The notes below the pieces were generated by a model that saw only the letters and a program-made list of their open reading frames with translations, was not told the origin of the DNA and ran no database searches. From a virus, in IMG/VR virus record IMGVR_UViG_3300037419_001822, positions 49,440 to 113,439 of that record: DNA of 64,000 nt. One strand, 5' to 3'. Below, in pieces: positions 14,394-58,908 of this stretch; positions within the stretch are counted from its first letter, which is position 1; each line of letters begins with the position of its first letter. The translations under genes were made by a program, and so were the position numbers.

Positions 14394-14661
14394 CCGGCTG
14401 CACCTGTCACCGCTGCCAGGACCACCGTGATCGTCAGCTCAACAGCGAGGCGTGGCGCGCCCTGAACGCGGCCACCCGGAGGTAGTTCGTGCAGGGATCC
14501 CCGGCCCACTACTGGGCCCGGTGCGCCAACTACGACGAGCTGCGGCTGCGGCCCTGCCCGGGGTGGATCGAGTACCACCCCGGGGATCTCGACGCCGCCT
14601 GCGACACCTGCCGAGGCCGGTGCGGGTGGCAGGTGTCCGGCCCCGGGTGGCTCGATCGGGA

Positions 14662-14945
14662 CACCCTCCCCGGGTGGTTCAGCGAGCCCCCCCCGGGAGT
14701 GGTTCGTCGGATAGCCCCCCGGCGGTGGCGGACAGGCCCGCCCCCGGTGTCGGCGAGACCCCCCGGAGGTGCCGACAACCCGCCCCCCGGGTGGCAACAA
14801 GACCACCCCCCGGTAGTTCGAACCCCACCCCCCGGTGGCGAAGACCCCCCCGGGGTGGTTCGAAGACCCCCCGGGGTGGCAACAAGACCCCCCGGGGTGG
14901 CAAACGGGCCCCCCGGGGGTGCCGACGACCCCACCCCCCTCCACC
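14662..14945. repeat. Array of about 12-13 imperfect 20-28 bp units (C5-8 tract + GG(G)GTGG/GTGCC + short A-rich spacer)
   Basis: For example CCCCCCCGGGGTGGTTCGAAGA, CCCCCCGGGGTGGCAACAAGA, CCCCCCGGGGTGGCAAACGGG. Confidence 0.85.
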
Positions 14946-15639: not shown

Positions 15640-15676
15640 GCGCCGGAGCTGATGAAAGCTCCGGCGCGATTTTGTT
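15640..15676 (+). terminator. Intrinsic terminator
   Basis: GCGCCGGAGCT-GATGAA-AGCTCCGGCGC stem then GATTTTGTT. Confidence 0.75.
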
Positions 15677-15866
15677 CTGGGACGTTTTCGCAGGTCAAAC
15701 GCGGACTTCGCGGATCTTCCGCGCGATTTTCGCTCTGAAACGGTATTGTTTTTTCGCGATTTTGAAAGCTCGCGCGCGATTTTAGCTCTGGCGCGGTATT
15801 AGCTCTGGCGCGGTATTGCCGCCGCGCCGCCGCGCGCGCGCGATATTAGCTCTGAGACGGTATTGT
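15665..15866. repeat. Array of CGCGATTTT / CGGTATT / AGCTCTG modules
   Basis: About 4 CGCGATTTT, 4 CGGTATT and 3-4 (A/C)GCTCTG copies in 200 bp of non-coding DNA. Confidence 0.75.
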
Positions 15867-17369: not shown

Positions 17370-17402
17370 CACTTCCCACGAATCGGAACCGGAGATCCTG
17401 AC

Positions 17403-17609
17403 ATGTCTGCAGTCATCGGAATTGTCGGAATCGTCGCACTCGCAGGAATCTACGTCTGGGCAGAAATCTACTGCCACATTCGAGACCGTCACACGGTCGG
17501 CCCGCGTCCTCTCATCCGTACCGACATTGACGACACCCTCCGCGCAATTCCGGGTGTCTACGTTCTGCACTCCGAATCCGCTAACGACCTCCAGCTCACC
17601 CTCTTCTGA
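17403..17609 (+). CDS. Small membrane protein
   Basis: GGAGA RBS; N-terminal TM. Confidence 0.6.
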   Translation: MSAVIGIVGIVALAGIYVWAEIYCHIRDRHTVGPRPLIRTDIDDTLRAIPGVYVLHSESANDLQLTLF

Positions 17610-17629
17610 TTCCGGAAGGATTCCCTGTC

Positions 17630-17779
17630 ATGTTCGCGATCGTCGCTCAGATTCTGGTCTACCTCACCCTTGCTGCATTGGTTCCATTGACGATTGTCAC
17701 CGGACACCAGGCAGCACAGGCGCACGCGGAAGGCGCAGCCTCCCCCGATGCGGACACCCTTACTCCGACCCTTTACTGA
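17630..17779 (+). CDS. Small membrane/secreted peptide (49 aa, below ORF-track cutoff)
   Basis: GGAAGGA RBS; MFAIVAQILVYLTLAALVPLTIV... Confidence 0.5.
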   Translation: MFAIVAQILVYLTLAALVPLTIVTGHQAAQAHAEGAASPDADTLTPTLY

Positions 17780-17794
17780 GAGAGGCAAACGGCC

Positions 17795-18082
17795 GTGCGA
17801 ATCCGAACCGCTCAGGCAGCCTGTGCCGCTGTGCTGTGCGCCTCCCTGCTCCTAGTCCCTACTGCAGGCTCCGAGAGGCCTAGCGGCGTTTCTGGGGCCT
17901 CTGGCGACGCTGCCAGTAGTGAGGCCTCCTGGCGCGTCGACACGGCGGAGCGCGCCACGTGCATTCCGTACCTGTGGGAATCGTCCGACGACGGAATAGG
18001 CGTGGCGGAAATGCTCTCCCATGGCTGGCACACAAGCGGAGAGGACGGACGCGCTTTCGCACTCTATCCGCCGAATTGCTGA
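17795..18082 (+). CDS. Hypothetical secreted protein
   Basis: GAGAGG RBS; signal-peptide-like N-terminus. Confidence 0.5.
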   Translation: MRIRTAQAACAAVLCASLLLVPTAGSERPSGVSGASGDAASSEASWRVDTAERATCIPYLWESSDDGIGVAEMLSHGWHTSGEDGRAFALYPPNC

Positions 18083-18140
18083 CAGCCTTGGTCGCGGCCG
18101 GAATTCCGGCCGCGCGCCATGGATGCCAGAGAGGCACCCT
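18079..18140 (+). repeat. 62-bp structured intergenic element, copy 1
   Basis: CTGAC..TTGGTC-[GCGGCCGG AATT CCGGCCGC]-GCGCCATGGATGCCAGAGAGGCACCCT. Confidence 0.85.
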
Positions 18141-18162
18141 GCCGAATAGGGAGGCACACACA

Positions 18163-18369
18163 ATGCGCAATCTCTGCCACGTCTGCCGGAGGCTCCGTCC
18201 CGCGCGCGCATTCCGATTCTCTGTCCATGTCTGTGATGACTGCGAGCGTGCGCCGCAGTACGTCACTGGCGACGGCGTTTCTCATTACACGCGCGAGGCA
18301 GCGTTCCGGCATGCCGATTCGGTAGCGGCACGCACCGGTCAGATTATCGCGATTGAGAGTGCTCTCTGA
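18163..18369 (+). CDS. Small Zn-ribbon protein
   Basis: GGGAGG RBS; CHVC..CDDC. Confidence 0.6.
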   Translation: MRNLCHVCRRLRPARAFRFSVHVCDDCERAPQYVTGDGVSHYTREAAFRHADSVAARTGQIIAIESAL

Positions 18370-18427
18370 CCGCTTTGGTCGGGCCCGACCACTCGGGCCC
18401 GCGCCATGGATGCCAGAGAGGCACCCT
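18366..18427 (+). repeat. 62-bp structured intergenic element, copy 2
   Basis: CTGAC..TTGGTC-[GGGCCCGA CCAC TCGGGCCC]-GCGCCATGGATGCCAGAGAGGCACCCT. Confidence 0.85.
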
Positions 18428-18450
18428 CACAGAGAGAGAGGCGCAGGACA

Positions 18451-19221
18451 ATGCTCAGCACACAAGCACTCGGAACGGAACTAGCTACCCGCGTCCGGTC
18501 CGCCGTCTCCGCCGTTGCCTTCCTCACTGGACAGAGCGAGGCGCACGCGGAAACGGAATTAGCGTCCCTCGCGGGTGTCGTCGTCAATCCTGTGCGACAG
18601 GACAGAATCGCACAGGCATATGACACCATGCCACGCATTCCCCACGGAATGCGTGAGCTGCGCGAGGCCTGCCACGCATGGACAGTGTTCGCTCTGGAGA
18701 TCCGCGCGCAATGGGATGCGCTGCACTCCCTCGGATTCTCGCTCACTGTCGAGTCATTCGACCCATATGCCGGACCGGCCGAAATGTTCGGCGACGTCGC
18801 CGACTACAGAATCCGCGTCCTGGCGACCGATGTGTGCGGAGAACATCCCTACCTATCGAATGAGGATAACGACCTATTCCGCGCCGTTCACGACATTCTG
18901 GGCCACGCTGCCACAGGACGCGGATTCGACAGGCACGGTGAGGAAGCCGCGTACCAATCGCACTGCCGCATGTTCTCACCCGTCGCGCGCCTCGCATTGG
19001 CAACGGAGACGCGCGGACAGAATGCCTCCCTGCACAGCAATGGTCGATTCCCTGTGCAACGTCTCGGCATCCTCCCCGGATGGGCCCGCGAGACGGACGC
19101 ACTCGCATTCGGCCTGCCGATCACATTCGACGACATGCGGGCCGAGGCAGCGGCACACCAGGACGCGCACACCTACGCACTCCGAGAGGGAATCGCACAG
19201 CGACCCTCTCAGAGCCTCTGA
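18451..19221 (+). CDS. Zincin-like metalloprotein (NDLFRAVHDxxGH / TETRGQN family)
   Basis: NDLFRAVHDILGH..GEEAAY..H..MFS..ATETRGQN motif seen in phage and polyvalent proteins. Confidence 0.7.
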   Translation: MLSTQALGTELATRVRSAVSAVAFLTGQSEAHAETELASLAGVVVNPVRQDRIAQAYDTMPRIPHGMRELREACHAWTVFALEIRAQWDALHSLGFSLTVESFDPYAGPAEMFGDVADYRIRVLATDVCGEHPYLSNEDNDLFRAVHDILGHAATGRGFDRHGEEAAYQSHCRMFSPVARLALATETRGQNASLHSNGRFPVQRLGILPGWARETDALAFGLPITFDDMRAEAAAHQDAHTYALREGIAQRPSQSL

Positions 19222-19247
19222 GAGACCACAGGAGACATCGCCATGAC
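19218..19247 (+). repeat. Stop-RBS-start junction repeat, copy 1 (copy 2 at 19458-19487)
   Basis: CTGAGAGACCACAGGAGACAT identical in both copies, 240 bp apart. Confidence 0.85.
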
Positions 19248-19461
19248 GTGCCGCACTCGCACTAGCGGGAACCGTGCCCACCGTTGCTCTCGGGCCCATT
19301 GGGAACTAGTCGAGTCATACCGGCTCTGGCGAGAGACCGAACTACTCGCGGCAGAGGCTGCCACGAATGGATATGAGACCGAACTAGCGGAGTACTGGCA
19401 GACACATACGCGGCCCACGTTCCGCGCCTACCTAATCGGAGTCGGGCGCACTGCCCGCTGA
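19243..19461 (+). CDS. Small hypothetical protein
   Basis: AGGAG RBS; flanked by junction repeats. Confidence 0.65.
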   Translation: MTCRTRTSGNRAHRCSRAHWELVESYRLWRETELLAAEAATNGYETELAEYWQTHTRPTFRAYLIGVGRTAR

Positions 19462-19482
19462 GAGACCACAGGAGACATTGTC

Positions 19483-20127
19483 ATGACTGACCTAGTGCCC
19501 AGTGCCCGGAACATCCTCTCCGTTTGGCACAGTGCCACTCCGGCCGATGTGAACGCGGGGAGGGAGTGGTACCGACGCGCACGCGCTTTCGCGGCAGAGC
19601 TAGATCCTGCCGACCCTGAGCGCGCGGCGGCCGTTATCGCTGTGCTCTCTCCGCAATTGTCCTGGCCGCGAAACGCACAGCATGCCCGGCACGCGTACGA
19701 ATTGCGGGCCGAGGGTGCGACCGTGGATGAGATCACAGCCGCACTGCCGATGCTCAAGCGCAATGCCCGGAAGGCGGCCGCAATTCTGTGGGGTGCCGAT
19801 CCGGACGCCGTCGTGAGTGGCCCTAAGGTCCGGGCATTCTGGCATTCCATCGCTCGGCCCGATGATGCCCGCTCCGTCGTCATCGATCGGCACGCCGTGG
19901 ATGTGTCACTCGGAATGGTCACCGATGACGCTACCCGCTCCCGTCTCATTGGGCGGAAGGGTGGATATGCCACCGTCGCCGATGCCTACATTCGTGCGGC
20001 CCGCATTCTGTCAGAACAACTCGGCGACACAATCACAGCAACAGAATTGCAAGGTGTGACGTGGACAGCATGGCGACACACTCACGCACTGGCATTCCAT
20101 GGCGACACTGAGAGGAAAGCAAACTGA
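19483..20127 (+). CDS. DUF7178-like protein, possible HhH-GPD/DNA-glycosylase fold
   Basis: G.EWY..AAVIAVLSPQLSWPRN..GPKVRAF..VVIDRHA..LQGVTW. Confidence 0.7.
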   Translation: MTDLVPSARNILSVWHSATPADVNAGREWYRRARAFAAELDPADPERAAAVIAVLSPQLSWPRNAQHARHAYELRAEGATVDEITAALPMLKRNARKAAAILWGADPDAVVSGPKVRAFWHSIARPDDARSVVIDRHAVDVSLGMVTDDATRSRLIGRKGGYATVADAYIRAARILSEQLGDTITATELQGVTWTAWRHTHALAFHGDTERKAN

Positions 20128-20537
20128 TGAGCACAATGGCAACGCTTGACGCTGCTATCCGTTTCGACGTGCTGCCCGCACTTGTGTCAGAGGGTGGATT
20201 CACATTCGACGTAGCGAGTGCGTCACTGGTCGGCATCGGCGAGAGGCGCGGATACGCTATCGCTATCCCTGACAGTGAGCGCATTCTAGGCAGTGAGGAC
20301 GTCACTACCGAGGATCTCGTATCAGCCATTGCTGATCTCATCATGGAATATGCCGACGCACTGAGCACTGGCGCAATGGTAGGTGGCTGGCACTCGACAG
20401 AGCGCAATGTGTATATGGTCGAGATCAGCGACGTGATCACATGTGATCGAACCAACGCTATTGCCATCGGTCGAATGAGAGGACAGGAAAGCGTATTCGA
20501 CCTGAGCAATGGTGAATGCGTGAGCTGCCGCACATAG
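20127..20537 (+). CDS. Phage protein with possible SAM-lyase-like motifs
   Basis: GGFTFD..GY..GGW..EIS..AIAIGRMRGQESVFDL. Confidence 0.55.
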   Translation: MSTMATLDAAIRFDVLPALVSEGGFTFDVASASLVGIGERRGYAIAIPDSERILGSEDVTTEDLVSAIADLIMEYADALSTGAMVGGWHSTERNVYMVEISDVITCDRTNAIAIGRMRGQESVFDLSNGECVSCRT

Positions 20538-20562: not shown

Positions 20563-20597
20563 CGGGCCGCAACCTTAGGGTTGCGGCCCGCTTTGTT
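20563..20597 (+). terminator. Intrinsic terminator closing the island
   Basis: CGGGCCGCAACC-TTAG-GGTTGCGGCCCG then CTTTGTT. Confidence 0.85.
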
Positions 20598-20828
20598 GTG
20601 CCCAACGGAAACCATGCGTGCTCGGAACTAGATCGTGCGCTTCGTGCCAGCATGGTTGCGCAGACTGTCGAGTCTCAGCGCAGAACATGCGATTGCTGAG
20701 CCTGTGAGACGCGCTGAGCGACGATCGTAGGGTCACGGGTATAGACACACCAGCCTAGGATCTCCCGTCGGCAGAGAGGCACTGAGCGGGTCGACGTTGG
20801 GTCCTACTCCATTGCGCACAACTAAATA

Positions 20829-20900
20829 GGGGGGGGCCATCTAGAAGTTCAGACGATCGGGGGCCGCCGACTCCGCGCCGGTAGGCGAAATCCCTCCCCG
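20829..20900. other. Candidate cos/packaging-initiation region
   Basis: G8 run..GACTCCGCGCCGGTAGGCGAAATCCCTCCCC layout resembles 3'-cos regions of HK97-type phages; marks the compositional boundary. Confidence 0.35.
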
Positions 20901-20981
20901 GCGGTCTTGAGGGGGTTCGCGCGCGCGGTGTATGCGCGCGCGTATTGCGGCCTGTCGGCCCCCTGTCTAAACTGTTGATCT

Positions 20982-22088
20982 ATGGGGTCAAGCGTGTCCT
21001 GCGCTACGTGTGGTGAAGCGACGACCCGACGGATGTACTGCTCCGTCCAGTGCAACTCGAAGGCCAAGGCCGAGCGGCAAAAGCGGCCGTGCGCTGGTGG
21101 ATGCGGCCGGTTGGTCCACCGTCCTGGTCACGGCTCGTCGGGCGACGCGCCCCGTATGTGCAACCCCTGTCGCCGCGCCAGGCGCTGCTCGGAGCCAGGC
21201 TGTGCGGAGCGGCCCGAGGCCAGGGGGGTTTGTCGCCGCCACTACCATCTCGCCTGGAAGTCCCGCGCCTTCGGCAACCCCGAGTGCTCGGTAGTGGGCT
21301 GCTCTCGCGGCGCGCGCAGCCACGGCCTCTGTCAGGTCCATGCGATGCGGAAGCGGCGCGATGAGGGTTACGTCGACCCGCCGCGTACCCGGCTGGTCGA
21401 CAGAACGTGCAGGCGTTGCGACCTGGCGTTTAGGGGCTACTGCGGCACGAAGTACTGCTGGACCTGCCGATCGGCAGTACTGGCCGAGCGCAACCGTGCG
21501 AGCGCTCGCCCCGCGAAGACCGGGCCGTGCAGCCACTTCTCGATCAACGACTGCCGGGCGTGTGGCCGCCTCTTCGTTGACAAGGGTAAGCGTGGTCGAG
21601 TCGCATGCTCGGCCGAATGCCGTGGGCAATTGGCCCGGGACCGGGCGAATCGACAGCGCGTCTGCGCCGGTTGTGGGGTGCCGGTGCCGAAGGGGTCGTA
21701 TCAGCGTCGGTGTGAGCCTTGCCGGGTAGCCCGGCGCGAGGCGGTCCGCCGGGCGGCCTCGAAGGTGGCCGGGAAGCATCGCGCGCGGGCACGGCGCTTC
21801 GGGCGTCGCTACGAGCCCGGGTTGACCTGGCGGACGATCGCCAAGCGCGACGGGCTGCTCTGCTGGCTCTGCGGCCAGTGGACCGACCCCGATGACTTCG
21901 ACCTGGTCGAGGGGAGGGATCGGCGCAGCGCCGTCGCCTGCGGCCCGACCTACCCGACGCTCGATCACGTCGTCGCGCTGTCCCGGGGCGGTGATCACGT
22001 CGGCGACAATGTCCGCCTGGCCTGTCACGCCTGCAACGCACGGAAGGGCGATCGAGATCCGGCCGAGTACCTCACCTGCCTGGGATGA
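20982..22088 (+). CDS. HNH endonuclease with multiple N-terminal Zn-finger repeats
   Basis: RDGLLCWLCG..PTLDHVVALSRGGDH..NVRLACHACNARKG. Confidence 0.85.
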   Translation: MGSSVSCATCGEATTRRMYCSVQCNSKAKAERQKRPCAGGCGRLVHRPGHGSSGDAPRMCNPCRRARRCSEPGCAERPEARGVCRRHYHLAWKSRAFGNPECSVVGCSRGARSHGLCQVHAMRKRRDEGYVDPPRTRLVDRTCRRCDLAFRGYCGTKYCWTCRSAVLAERNRASARPAKTGPCSHFSINDCRACGRLFVDKGKRGRVACSAECRGQLARDRANRQRVCAGCGVPVPKGSYQRRCEPCRVARREAVRRAASKVAGKHRARARRFGRRYEPGLTWRTIAKRDGLLCWLCGQWTDPDDFDLVEGRDRRSAVACGPTYPTLDHVVALSRGGDHVGDNVRLACHACNARKGDRDPAEYLTCLG

Positions 22089-27688: not shown

Positions 27689-27759
27689 TCCGGGCTCGTC
27701 CAATGGCAAGACGCCGCGCTCTGGACGCGGAAATTGAGGTTCGACCCCTTGGCCCGGAG
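27689..27759 (+). tRNA. tRNA-Gln(CTG)
   Basis: Acceptor TCCGGGC/GCCCGGA; anticodon arm CCGCG-CTCTGGA-CGCGG; T-loop TTCGACC. Confidence 0.9.
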
Positions 27760-27761
27760 CT

Positions 27762-27846
27762 GGAGAGCGGCCCGGACGGCAAGGGCTGCGGCTGCTATCC
27801 GCAAGGCCGGGGCGACCCGGAGCAGGTTCGACTCCTGCGCTCTCCG
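27762..27846 (+). tRNA. tRNA-Ser(GCT), long variable arm
   Basis: Acceptor GGAGAGC/GCTCTCC; anticodon arm TGCGG-CTGCTAT-CCGCA; variable stem CCGGG/CCCGG; TTCGACT; discriminator G. Confidence 0.88.
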
Positions 27847-27916
27847 CAGCCGCACAAATAGCACGTCAGCGTGCCATTTGTGCCAACACCCCATCCCAAT
27901 AGGAAGGCGCACCCAC

Positions 27917-34828: not shown

Positions 34829-34899
34829 TCCCGGGCGGCCCCAGAGCCGCCCGTCTACCGCGCCCCGCTCTGGGAGCGCGGATCCCCCGATGCCCGTCA

Positions 34900-39807: not shown

Positions 39808-40470
39808 GTGGCAGTCGTCACTGGTACTGACATCTCGACCTTCGAGGGCGGCGACGCCTCGATCGTCCTCCGGCCCACCAAGATGGCCATCCTCATCGCC
39901 CCGCCCGGCACCGCCGCGCTGACGACGATCGTGGACGCCACCGACGGCACGCACCTCTCCCTGCCGGGCGAGTTCAAGTCCGTCGGCTACCTGGAGAAGT
40001 CCGACGGTCTCGGCCTCGCGCCGAAGATCGACACCTCCCCGTCGGAGGCCTACGGCCAGACCCAGCCGATCAACTACTACATCACGGGCTCGACGTTCAC
40101 GGCGAGCTTCACGATGAAGGAGACCAGCAAGGCCGTCCTCGACGCCTACCTGGCGATGGACCTGTCCGGCGTCTCGGCCAGCGGCACCACCAAGGAGGTG
40201 AAGATCACCACCCCGGACGTGCCGAGTGTGCGCTACCCGGCGCTGCTGGCGGTCGGCCAGCACAAGCAGGGCGCCGACGCGATCTGGGTGGCTCACTACA
40301 TGCCCCGCGTGATGATCACGGACATGAAGGAGCAGGGCTGGAAGGACGACGCCGACATGACGTACGGCGTCACCTACACCGCCCTGGTGGACGACACCCT
40401 CGGCACCGCGCGTGACATCTTCATCGCCGGTCCGGGCATGGTCGCCGGTTCCACCGCGATGGGCTTCTGA
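39808..40470 (+). CDS. Major tail protein
   Basis: AAAGGAG RBS; SVGYLEKSDG..EAYG..FTMKET; synteny. Confidence 0.85.
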   Translation: MAVVTGTDISTFEGGDASIVLRPTKMAILIAPPGTAALTTIVDATDGTHLSLPGEFKSVGYLEKSDGLGLAPKIDTSPSEAYGQTQPINYYITGSTFTASFTMKETSKAVLDAYLAMDLSGVSASGTTKEVKITTPDVPSVRYPALLAVGQHKQGADAIWVAHYMPRVMITDMKEQGWKDDADMTYGVTYTALVDDTLGTARDIFIAGPGMVAGSTAMGF

Positions 40471-40485
40471 CCCGTCGCTCAGTCG

Positions 40486-40529
40486 GCGGCGGCGGGCCCG
40501 TTTATGTGGGTGGACCGGCCCGCCGCCGC
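40486..40529 (+). terminator. Stem-loop after major tail gene
   Basis: GCGGCGGCGGGCC / GGCCCGCCGCCGC. Confidence 0.6.
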
Positions 40530-40589
40530 TCCCTTCTGAACCTCCCGTCCACACCCACGCCTCTCCCACTGGACGGAAGGAACTTCGTC

Positions 40590-58291: not shown

Positions 58292-58819
58292 ATGTTGGAC
58301 AACACCGAGGGTCTGCACGGCTTCGTCACCTGGGAGCTGCGCGCGGCGGACGGGACGCTCAAGGCGACCGGCGAGTCTCGGAATATCATTACGGACGTCG
58401 GCGACACCCTGTACGCCCAGCGCGGCTCCGGCGTCGGCACCCCGGCCCAGCCGACCGGCATGAAGCTGGGCACCGGCTCCACCACGGCCGGGAACGCCCC
58501 GGCCAAGAACGGCACCGGTGCCGCGCTGGCCACCTACCTGTCCGGGTCGAACAAGGCGTTCGACGCCACCTTCCCGTCCGGTGCGCTGGCGGCCGGGCTC
58601 GGCTACACGGTCACCTACAAGCGGACCTACGCCGCCGGGGAGGCCACGAGCGCGAGCAACGCGATCACCGAGGCGGTCATCGTCACCGACACGATCGCCA
58701 CCGACGCCACCTCGACGGCGGCGAACACGATCAGCCGGGTCGCGCTGACCGGCATCGCATCCAAGCAGAGCACGGACACGCTGACCGTCACCTGGACGCA
58801 CAAGCTGCTCGGGGCGTAG
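58292..58819 (+). CDS. Virion/tail accessory protein
   Basis: AGGAG RBS; NIITDVG..GTGST..ITEA..DTLTVTW. Confidence 0.75.
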   Translation: MLDNTEGLHGFVTWELRAADGTLKATGESRNIITDVGDTLYAQRGSGVGTPAQPTGMKLGTGSTTAGNAPAKNGTGAALATYLSGSNKAFDATFPSGALAAGLGYTVTYKRTYAAGEATSASNAITEAVIVTDTIATDATSTAANTISRVALTGIASKQSTDTLTVTWTHKLLGA

Positions 58820-58837
58820 CCCTTCCCGACCAGCACT

Positions 58838-58872
58838 CCGGCCCCGTCCCGCCTCGCGCGGGGCGGGGCCGG
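58838..58872 (+). terminator. GC-rich stem-loop
   Basis: CCGGCCCCGTCCCGC / GCGGGGCGGGGCCGG (one G-T pair). Confidence 0.5.
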
Positions 58873-58908
58873 GCCATGTCCGCGCCCAGATGAGGGGGTG
58901 TCGCCGCG

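Follow-up and report, generated by a model that had tools for sequence, protein, structure and literature searches.

A structured, lineage-specific intergenic module at two gene junctions in an accessory operon of a soil actinophage

What is an intergenic element that recurs at two neighboring junctions of a phage operon, with a stem that differs in sequence between the copies and is nevertheless paired in both? We addressed this question for two copies, E1 and E2, that lie in a window of 64,000 nt. This window, the whole stretch of DNA analyzed, is the 3′-terminal part of an IMG/VR virus record of 113,439 nt (IMGVR_UViG_3300037419_001822) and has a G+C content of ∼71%, with an island of 63% G+C at ∼16 to 22 kb. 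Since the large terminase is 52 to 54% identical to Arthrobacter phage terminases (almost all of its 1,505 matches came from actinobacteriophages), and since a tyrosine recombinase/integrase is encoded elsewhere in the record (a single match, G000:35780-36271, ∼30 kb upstream of the element), the source is a soil actinophage that is uncultured and probably temperate. Both copies are situated in an operon of small same-strand genes, which code for a 377-amino-acid zinc finger protein, two small hydrophobic proteins that are likely membrane proteins, the products of gA, gB, gC, and gD, a DUF7178 protein, and the product of gF. The operon is closed by a canonical intrinsic terminator with a 12-bp stem and a T-run (20563 to 20600), which was detected by a terminator scan and by folding; this and all other features described below with coordinates in the operon are on the plus strand. 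Seven of the nine proteins encoded in the island (17403 to 20537) do not contain a single lysine, the 377-amino-acid protein having 3 and the DUF7178 protein 5, which is unusual for a segment of lower G+C content. Speculatively, this might be linked to escape from lysine-targeted modification, e.g., pupylation. Left of the island, an apparently noncoding stretch (14557 to 14940) is densely packed with degenerate C-run/G-run units, each of which is locally self-complementary. A terminator composed of a stem and a T-run (15640 to 15667) is followed by iteron-like direct repeats of 17 to 33 nt (to 15865), and the segment from 15640 to 15865 may represent an origin or a regulatory region. Genes for tRNA-Gln(CTG) and tRNA-Ser(GCT) are located side by side at 27689 to 27847, ∼2.5 kb upstream of the large terminase gene.

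Two 62-nt copies, each opening at the stop codon of the preceding gene, had been described in the initial annotation, and both were recovered: E1 at 18079 to 18140 (TGA at 18080 to 18082; 93.3 bits with covariance model R1) and E2 at 18366 to 18427 (TGA at 18367 to 18369; 91.3 bits with the same model). Both cores have the same layout of stop codon, head, hairpin 1, and invariant tail. The homology between the copies is in fact longer than 62 nt: it takes in the whole junction between the stop codon of one gene and the start codon of the next, being weaker through the spacer, which gives a repeated unit of ∼85 nt. Identity by segment was 8/10 in the head, 11/11 in the lower stem, 10/16 in the upper stem, 0/4 in the loop, and 21/21 in the tail. 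The head common to E1 and E2 comprises 15 nt with two differences. As first noticed, a 27-nt tail (18114 to 18140 in E1 and 18401 to 18427 in E2) is identical in both copies; it occurs twice in the window, was matched in 0 of 100 shuffles, and is also found just twice in the complete record. The tail contains a second hairpin with an SD-like (Shine-Dalgarno-like) purine loop (hairpin 2; 18121 to 18139 in E1 and 18408 to 18426 in E2). It ends 23 to 24 nt before the downstream ATG, and a separate SD site lies in between, within a variable spacer at 18141 to 18162 (working SD site of gB) or 18428 to 18450 (SD site of gC). The sequences upstream of the two element stop codons are unrelated to each other.

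The copies were said to bracket exactly one gene, which is indeed the case. This gene, gB (18163 to 18369), codes for a 68-amino-acid protein with a zinc-ribbon-like CxxC...CxxC arrangement that is known from four near-identical sequences only. No Pfam or PHROG family was matched by gB. Its structure matches in the Atlas scored <0.9, with TM values of ∼0.5 to 0.6 to SPOR-like folds, and we regard this similarity as a lead only. It is conceivable, though unsupported, that gB acts as a small zinc-ribbon nucleic acid binder at the flanking elements. Upstream of E1, gA (17795 to 18082) encodes 95 amino acids without a family match, and its N-terminal hydrophobic stretch looks, by eye, like a signal peptide. 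Downstream of E2, gC (18451 to 19221; 256 amino acids, phrog_3170) has ∼45% identical homologues, nearly all of them in Mycobacterium phages of ∼153 to 161 kb. Tandem gene duplication was excluded, since the flanking genes are not paralogues. The E1-gB-E2 layout is mirrored by a 33-nt junction repeat (stop codon, SD site, and start codon) that is unrelated to the element: its copies J1 (19215 to 19247) and J2 (19455 to 19487; 91% identical to J1) likewise bracket exactly one small gene, gD (19243 to 19461).

Hairpin 1 opens six bases past the upstream stop codon. In E1 (18089 to 18119), it comprises 13 bp with one bulged C and a 4-nt loop (−24.9 kcal/mol), and in E2 (18376 to 18406), the same architecture is built with three compensated pair changes and an unrelated loop (−23.5 kcal/mol); these energies are for the 31-nt hairpins, with a z value of about −4. 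Thus, the three compensated changes and the unrelated 4-nt loops had been recognized correctly in the initial annotation, whereas the stem is longer than the 8 bp given there. Its statement that structure rather than sequence is conserved applies to the upper stem but not to the head and the tail, which are conserved in sequence. All 19 proposed pairs were standard in both copies, three having changed at both positions and none at a single position, and pairing fell to 35 to 45% when the partner columns were slid. The chance of six independent substitutions landing in three pairs that are still complementary is ∼5 × 10−5. A column-shuffle control reached the observed value in 71 of 500 cases; with two sequences, its floor is ∼1/8, so formal significance is impossible. 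The covariation comes from one comparison, between two copies. Moreover, template-switch (quasipalindrome) mutation can give rise to compensated changes wherever DNA forms a perfect palindrome, without selection on an RNA, and such changes are therefore not proof.

The second hairpin, which had been read from the tail by inspection, was predicted by folding as well. In addition, each copy forms a 51-nt quasi-palindrome, with an interrupted stem of ∼20 bp that includes the stop codon in E1 (18079 to 18129) and of ∼19 bp in E2 (18366 to 18416). Because the 3′ strand of this quasi-palindrome overlaps hairpin 2, the 51-nt fold and hairpin 2 compete and are mutually exclusive. Evidence for the strand on which the element would act was mixed. 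The plus strand is hinted at by a U-G pair that both copies have in the lower stem and by the C-to-U change at position 9, where pairing is retained only in plus-strand RNA; hairpin 2 pairs better on the minus strand, with G-U in place of A-C.

The motif AGAGAGGCA, reported to recur at 17779 and 20773, was found at these positions too, giving 4 matches versus 0.34 expected. At 17776 to 17787, we observed a plain 12-nt junction of stop codon and SD site that equals the element minus its 46-nt palindrome: excision of 18083 to 18128 from E1, or of 18370 to 18415 from E2, yields the same 12 nt. The other junctions of the island follow the same grammar of a stop codon and a purine-rich SD site. The fourth AGAGAGGCA marks a noncoding stretch past the operon terminator (20773 to 20960), which also contains a G-run and a 9-bp GC palindrome (20918 to 20942) and is directly followed by a gene for an HNH endonuclease (20982 to 22088).

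An ATG is present in the tail and was considered as a start codon. In E2, it shares the frame of the downstream gene, but in E1 of this genome it does not; it is preceded by no SD site, and the products predicted by the gene caller start at the SD-preceded ATG. Since the frame of the tail ATG relative to the downstream gene differs between the copies and no SD site precedes it, we consider the element to be noncoding. In all three other strains covering the site, 2 nt of the CA-repeat spacer before gB (18155 to 18156) are missing. Without these 2 nt, the tail ATG of E1 is in frame with gB, as that of E2 is with gC; the chance of both frames agreeing by accident is one in nine, and no SD site precedes the ATG.

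Gain or loss at the element in relatives had been proposed as a check, and it was observed. The stretch is contained in eleven soil and rhizosphere runs, with no RNA run listed among those that contain it, and four of the eleven were compared over 17400 to 19300. Runs X2 and X9 contained two strains that are ∼1% diverged and have kept both elements. The only variant listed within their 62-nt cores was at head position 6 of copy 2, a comparison of low power (one variant in 124 nt versus about three expected), and the spacer just past the E1 tail showed two single-nucleotide polymorphisms (SNPs) and a 2-nt indel among the related strains. Run X10 contained a second, dominant strain (strain B; depth, ∼50), in which copy 2 is absent, spacer included. 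In one of the strain B contigs, the stop codon of gB is followed by 24 letters that match the start of gC (18452 to 18475) with three mismatches, and the two genes overlap as TGATG. Because the two X10 strains are identical downstream of 18466, the differences between them form a mosaic block with its right edge at the gB/gC junction.

Strain B also differs upstream of gB. Here, a 382-nt block (17734 to 18115) is replaced by ∼80 other letters, and similarity is back at 18116, two bases into the E1 tail. A variant of the upstream 49-amino-acid gene in the protein database has equal length and changes in residues 36 to 42 that match strain B; it shares a 35,112-nt JGI contig with a gB variant whose R10M exchange fits the strain B substitution at 18191. 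Given this protein variant on a strain B-like contig, ∼46 of the ∼80 replacement letters are the 3′ end of the 49-amino-acid gene, which leaves ∼34 letters between its stop codon and the tail, versus 33 in both copies of the genome studied here. We infer that strain B has no gA and that the element probably follows the 49-amino-acid gene directly, with a hairpin too diverged to align. A further variant, seen in contigs of runs X10 and X11, has a 231-nt in-frame deletion inside gA (17826 to 18056). As gA is internally deleted in two soil runs and missing in another strain, it looks dispensable. In strain B, breakpoints are found at element edges. Contigs that join E1 to E2 with gB deleted were absent from the four runs compared, in assemblies whose contigs drop rare forms.

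The search for further homologues that had been suggested at the outset recovered none outside this lineage in Rfam, IMG/VR, metagenome, or GTDB contigs. Covariance model R1 detected nothing beyond E1 and E2 in the entire record. With curated Rfam models at the gathering threshold, only tRNAs were matched in the whole window and the element was not, and in a local Rfam scan at E ≤ 10, the best match was the dauA motif (21.6 bits versus a cutoff of 45; E value, 0.37). A 20-mer of the tail in IMG/VR and an 18-mer in metagenome (JGI) and GTDB contigs gave chance matches only, with no hairpin upstream, and the head/tail flank pattern with 20 free bases gave 39 matches in IMG/VR, none with a hairpin; exact-word searches of this kind would miss diverged relatives. 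Searches of GenBank phages with the island (megablast and blastn) returned no meaningful DNA similarity, and locus searches guided by gB and gC returned no relatives in IMG/VR or metagenome contigs. A terminase search identified a 99% relative on a contig that ends 5 kb short of the element. The only relative of the island that was found, a distant one with a 51% identical DUF7178 protein, had no element according to model R1. Within reach of these searches, the element appears to be lineage specific.

Several known classes were compared with the element and were either rejected or left without support. A canonical intrinsic terminator has the GC-rich stem that is present here (13 bp, −24 to −25 kcal/mol), but a U-tract is missing, with a single T among the 10 nt that follow the stem; the terminator scan did not report the elements, though it did report those at 20563 and 15640. 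Strong GC hairpins without T-runs were also seen directly 3′ of stop codons at 34832 to 34853, 40470 to 40530, and 58819 to 58880, i.e., after three genes, two of which encode the prohead protease and the tail tube protein. These hairpins resemble those of the element, and given their occurrence after several genes, U-less post-stop hairpins look like a general expression device in this phage. A hairpin promoter, put forward among the initial candidates, was not borne out: no sigma-70-like promoter was detected in 18000 to 18500, and copy 2 is free of any TA dinucleotide between the tail and the ATG. An N4-type hairpin promoter, which would depend on a single-subunit or virion RNA polymerase of the phage, was likewise without support: PF00940 gave no match in the record, a weak negative because it gave none in control genomes either. 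A cassette recombination site, another of these candidates, failed in its strict form, that of an integron-type attC. The conserved ends, the variable center kept paired, and the position after a cassette gene are reminiscent of attC, but both cores (GTTRRRY/RYYYAAC) are lacking, the two 62-nt copies being free of GTT and of AAC, and there is no adjacent integron integrase or attI, the sole tyrosine recombinase match being ∼30 kb away. The looser idea of a boundary survives, as strain breakpoints coincide with the edges of the element. REP or IS200-IS605-type hairpins were dismissed, with PF01797 (Y1, RAYT/TnpA) not found in the record and two copies only. The same applied to a hairpin of a diversity-generating retroelement (PF00078 is absent, and with unrelated sequences upstream of the two stops there is no template/variable repeat [TR/VR] pair) and to CRISPR-like solitary repeats, given the spacing of 287 nt and the lack of a match to CRISPR-DR in Rfam.

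Among systems with partial likeness, the early genes of phage T7 are separated by RNase III sites, ∼50-nt interrupted intercistronic hairpins at about ten sites, from which the upstream mRNA presumably retains a 3′ hairpin that protects it. The element shares with these the interrupted hairpin of ∼50 nt between cistrons of one transcript and a base that is partly conserved in sequence; it differs in having two copies versus about ten, and as a cleavage site it is a candidate. REP/BIME extragenic palindromes are 3′ stabilizers of mRNA; they are host elements, present in hundreds of copies and tied to RAYT transposases. The element resembles them as a stable GC palindrome that lies in an operon, only a few bases from a stop codon; it differs in having two copies, with no RAYT encoded, versus hundreds. 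PeSLs (promoter-early stem-loops) are mobile regulatory cassettes of T4-type phages (PMC2839356, PMC4122927) for which recombination joints have been shown experimentally (PMC2839356). Like the element, they are repeated composite intergenic motifs with a GC stem-loop, located among small nonessential genes, with copies flanking single ORFans, and close relatives have gained, lost, or exchanged sequence at breakpoints within the motif (here, the E2 loss and the 382-nt block). PeSLs have a strong sigma-70 promoter, of which none was detected in the element, and dozens of copies per genome, versus two here; recombination between flanking PeSLs forms mini-circles. The sequences of PeSLs and of the element are unrelated. 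Cluster-specific intergenic motifs, some of them combining an inverted repeat with an adjacent conserved motif, are well documented in actinophages. SAS/ESAS motifs are found in Cluster K mycobacteriophages, where ESAS consists of imperfectly inverted repeats that are separated by a variable spacer and lie directly 5′ of the conserved motif (PMC3203893), and analogous intergenic motifs exist in Microbacterium phage clusters EC, EF, EG, and EI (PMC7302621). These too are actinophage motifs that are cluster specific, have one orientation, and occupy short intergenic gaps upstream of start codons, often of right-arm genes. The 13-bp SAS motif, however, overlaps the ribosome-binding site 3 to 8 nt from the start, whereas the element tail ends farther upstream, as given above; SAS/ESAS have 5 to 19 copies with conserved arms, versus two copies with covarying arms, and there is no sequence similarity.

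We tentatively favor, with a probability of roughly 0.45, the reading that the element is a lineage-specific intercistronic RNA stem-loop, i.e., a 3′-end barrier or processing site joined to a conserved downstream leader, and a marker of recombination joints as well. It would be transcribed within the polycistronic mRNA of the codirectional accessory-gene operon; both copies lie between same-strand genes, from stop codon to next start codon. Past the upstream stop codon, the RNA would fold into the very stable 13-bp hairpin, extendable to ∼20 bp, which would act as a 3′-end barrier or as an endonucleolytic processing site. The cut could be made by an RNase III-type enzyme within the long interrupted stem or by RNase E/J next to it. 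The feature expected of an RNase III-type site is present, namely, a 51-nt intercistronic interrupted helix of 19 to 20 pairs, or about two turns, in both copies. No RNase III gene was found in the phage, so a host enzyme would be needed. After the cut, the upstream cistron would retain a protective 3′ hairpin, and the invariant tail would then refold into a small 5′ stem-loop leader of the downstream cistron. In this way, the module would uncouple stability and translation of neighboring genes that are otherwise tightly coupled. Head and tail, being identical between the copies according to this proposal, might in addition serve as short homology patches, at which recombination would add, remove, or swap genes and elements. 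The anatomy of the module, its compensated stem, its distribution in two copies, and its presence or absence in related strains are directly established; transcription, cleavage or stabilization, and the role of the tail we infer. Identity of the tails could also reflect recent recombination or conversion instead of function, and strain B, being without E2, shows that the module is not needed for expression of gC.

The same anatomy can be read with recombination rather than RNA at its center. According to this rival, which is compatible with an RNA role and which we judge rather unlikely to be the principal explanation, the element is a PeSL-like linker whose head and tail are homology patches between cassettes, so that genes together with their 3′ hairpins are inserted, deleted, and exchanged by homologous recombination. 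Tails would be identical because crossovers need identity, and hairpins would differ because they arrived with different upstream genes. Such a linker would account for the single gene between the copies and for the unrelated J1 and J2 around the next small gene, since Campbell-type insertion of a circle of gene plus junction would yield this pattern, as for PeSLs (PMC2839356); tandem gene duplication is excluded by flanking genes that are not paralogous. The end of the replaced block of strain B in the first bases of the tail and the absence or internal deletion of gA are in line with it as well. However, a patch of 27 nt is barely long enough for homologous exchange to be efficient, a promoter as in PeSLs is lacking, no E1-E2 contig with gB deleted was seen among contigs that drop rare forms, and strain B has kept gB beside gC with only the element gone, which makes the element, and not a gene cassette, the varying unit. 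An extension, which we hold to be unlikely, is that the ∼82-nt stop-to-start module is itself mobile, a junction cassette inserted precisely where the stop and start codons of tightly coupled phage genes overlap as TGATG. With every copy, a hairpin of its own, a conserved leader, and a ribosome-binding site would arrive and rewire operon expression, and the strain-specific hairpins would be kept paired by selection. If true, actinophages would have an equivalent of mobile regulatory cassettes that lacks both a promoter and a dedicated recombinase.

The remaining explanations each take up a part of the element. Hairpin 1 might be a U-less attenuator or terminator that stops or pauses some RNA polymerases after gA and gB and thus grades operon expression, leaving the tail without a separate role. 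The strong GC hairpin directly 3′ of stop codons fits this, as do the similar hairpins after highly expressed structural genes of the same phage, and U-less, “I-shaped” terminators have been proposed for actinobacteria. Yet mycobacterial RNA polymerase reportedly needs a U-tract in vitro, no T-run is present 3′ of the stem, the same operon is closed by a classical stem-plus-T-run terminator, and the invariant 27-nt tail would be left unexplained; overall, we find an attenuator quite unlikely. Restoration of the plain junction at 17776 to 17787 upon removal of the palindrome, together with the precise boundaries of the presence/absence polymorphism, could instead point to a selfish, MITE- or REP-like palindrome of 46 nt that entered such a junction between stop codon and SD site and was later copied or transferred, with no function for the phage. 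This seems very unlikely to us: there are two copies only, target site duplication is lacking, terminal inverted repeats are confined to the hairpin, neither a Y1/RAYT transposase nor a reverse transcriptase is encoded, and no copies were found in any public collection searched. Furthermore, copies of an active element should agree in the center, which here is the most divergent part. Finally, the invariant and partly dyad-symmetric tail (7-nt arms, 5-nt spacer), or else the palindromic stem, might be bound as DNA, serving as an operator for a phage regulator, possibly the small CxxC...CxxC protein gB encoded between the sites. Against such an operator, which we consider highly improbable, stand the absence of a nearby promoter to regulate, the occurrence of the dyad pattern elsewhere at chance level (4 matches versus 3.9 expected), the different stem sequences of the two copies, which argue against sequence-specific duplex recognition there, and the lack of any match of gB to a DNA-binding family.

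Taken together, the element is a real and structured junction module, specific to one lineage, that is best placed among the familiar intergenic stem-loop and regulatory junction motifs of phages, and on present evidence, it opens no new class of RNA or mobile element. It extends the list of cluster-specific intergenic motifs of actinophages. The gB/gC pair, which exists both tightly coupled as TGATG and split by a structured spacer, constitutes a natural experiment on intercistronic hairpins. If the stem-loop reading is right, the locus would provide a compact, naturally polymorphic example of how accessory-gene operons of actinophages are partitioned and reshuffled.
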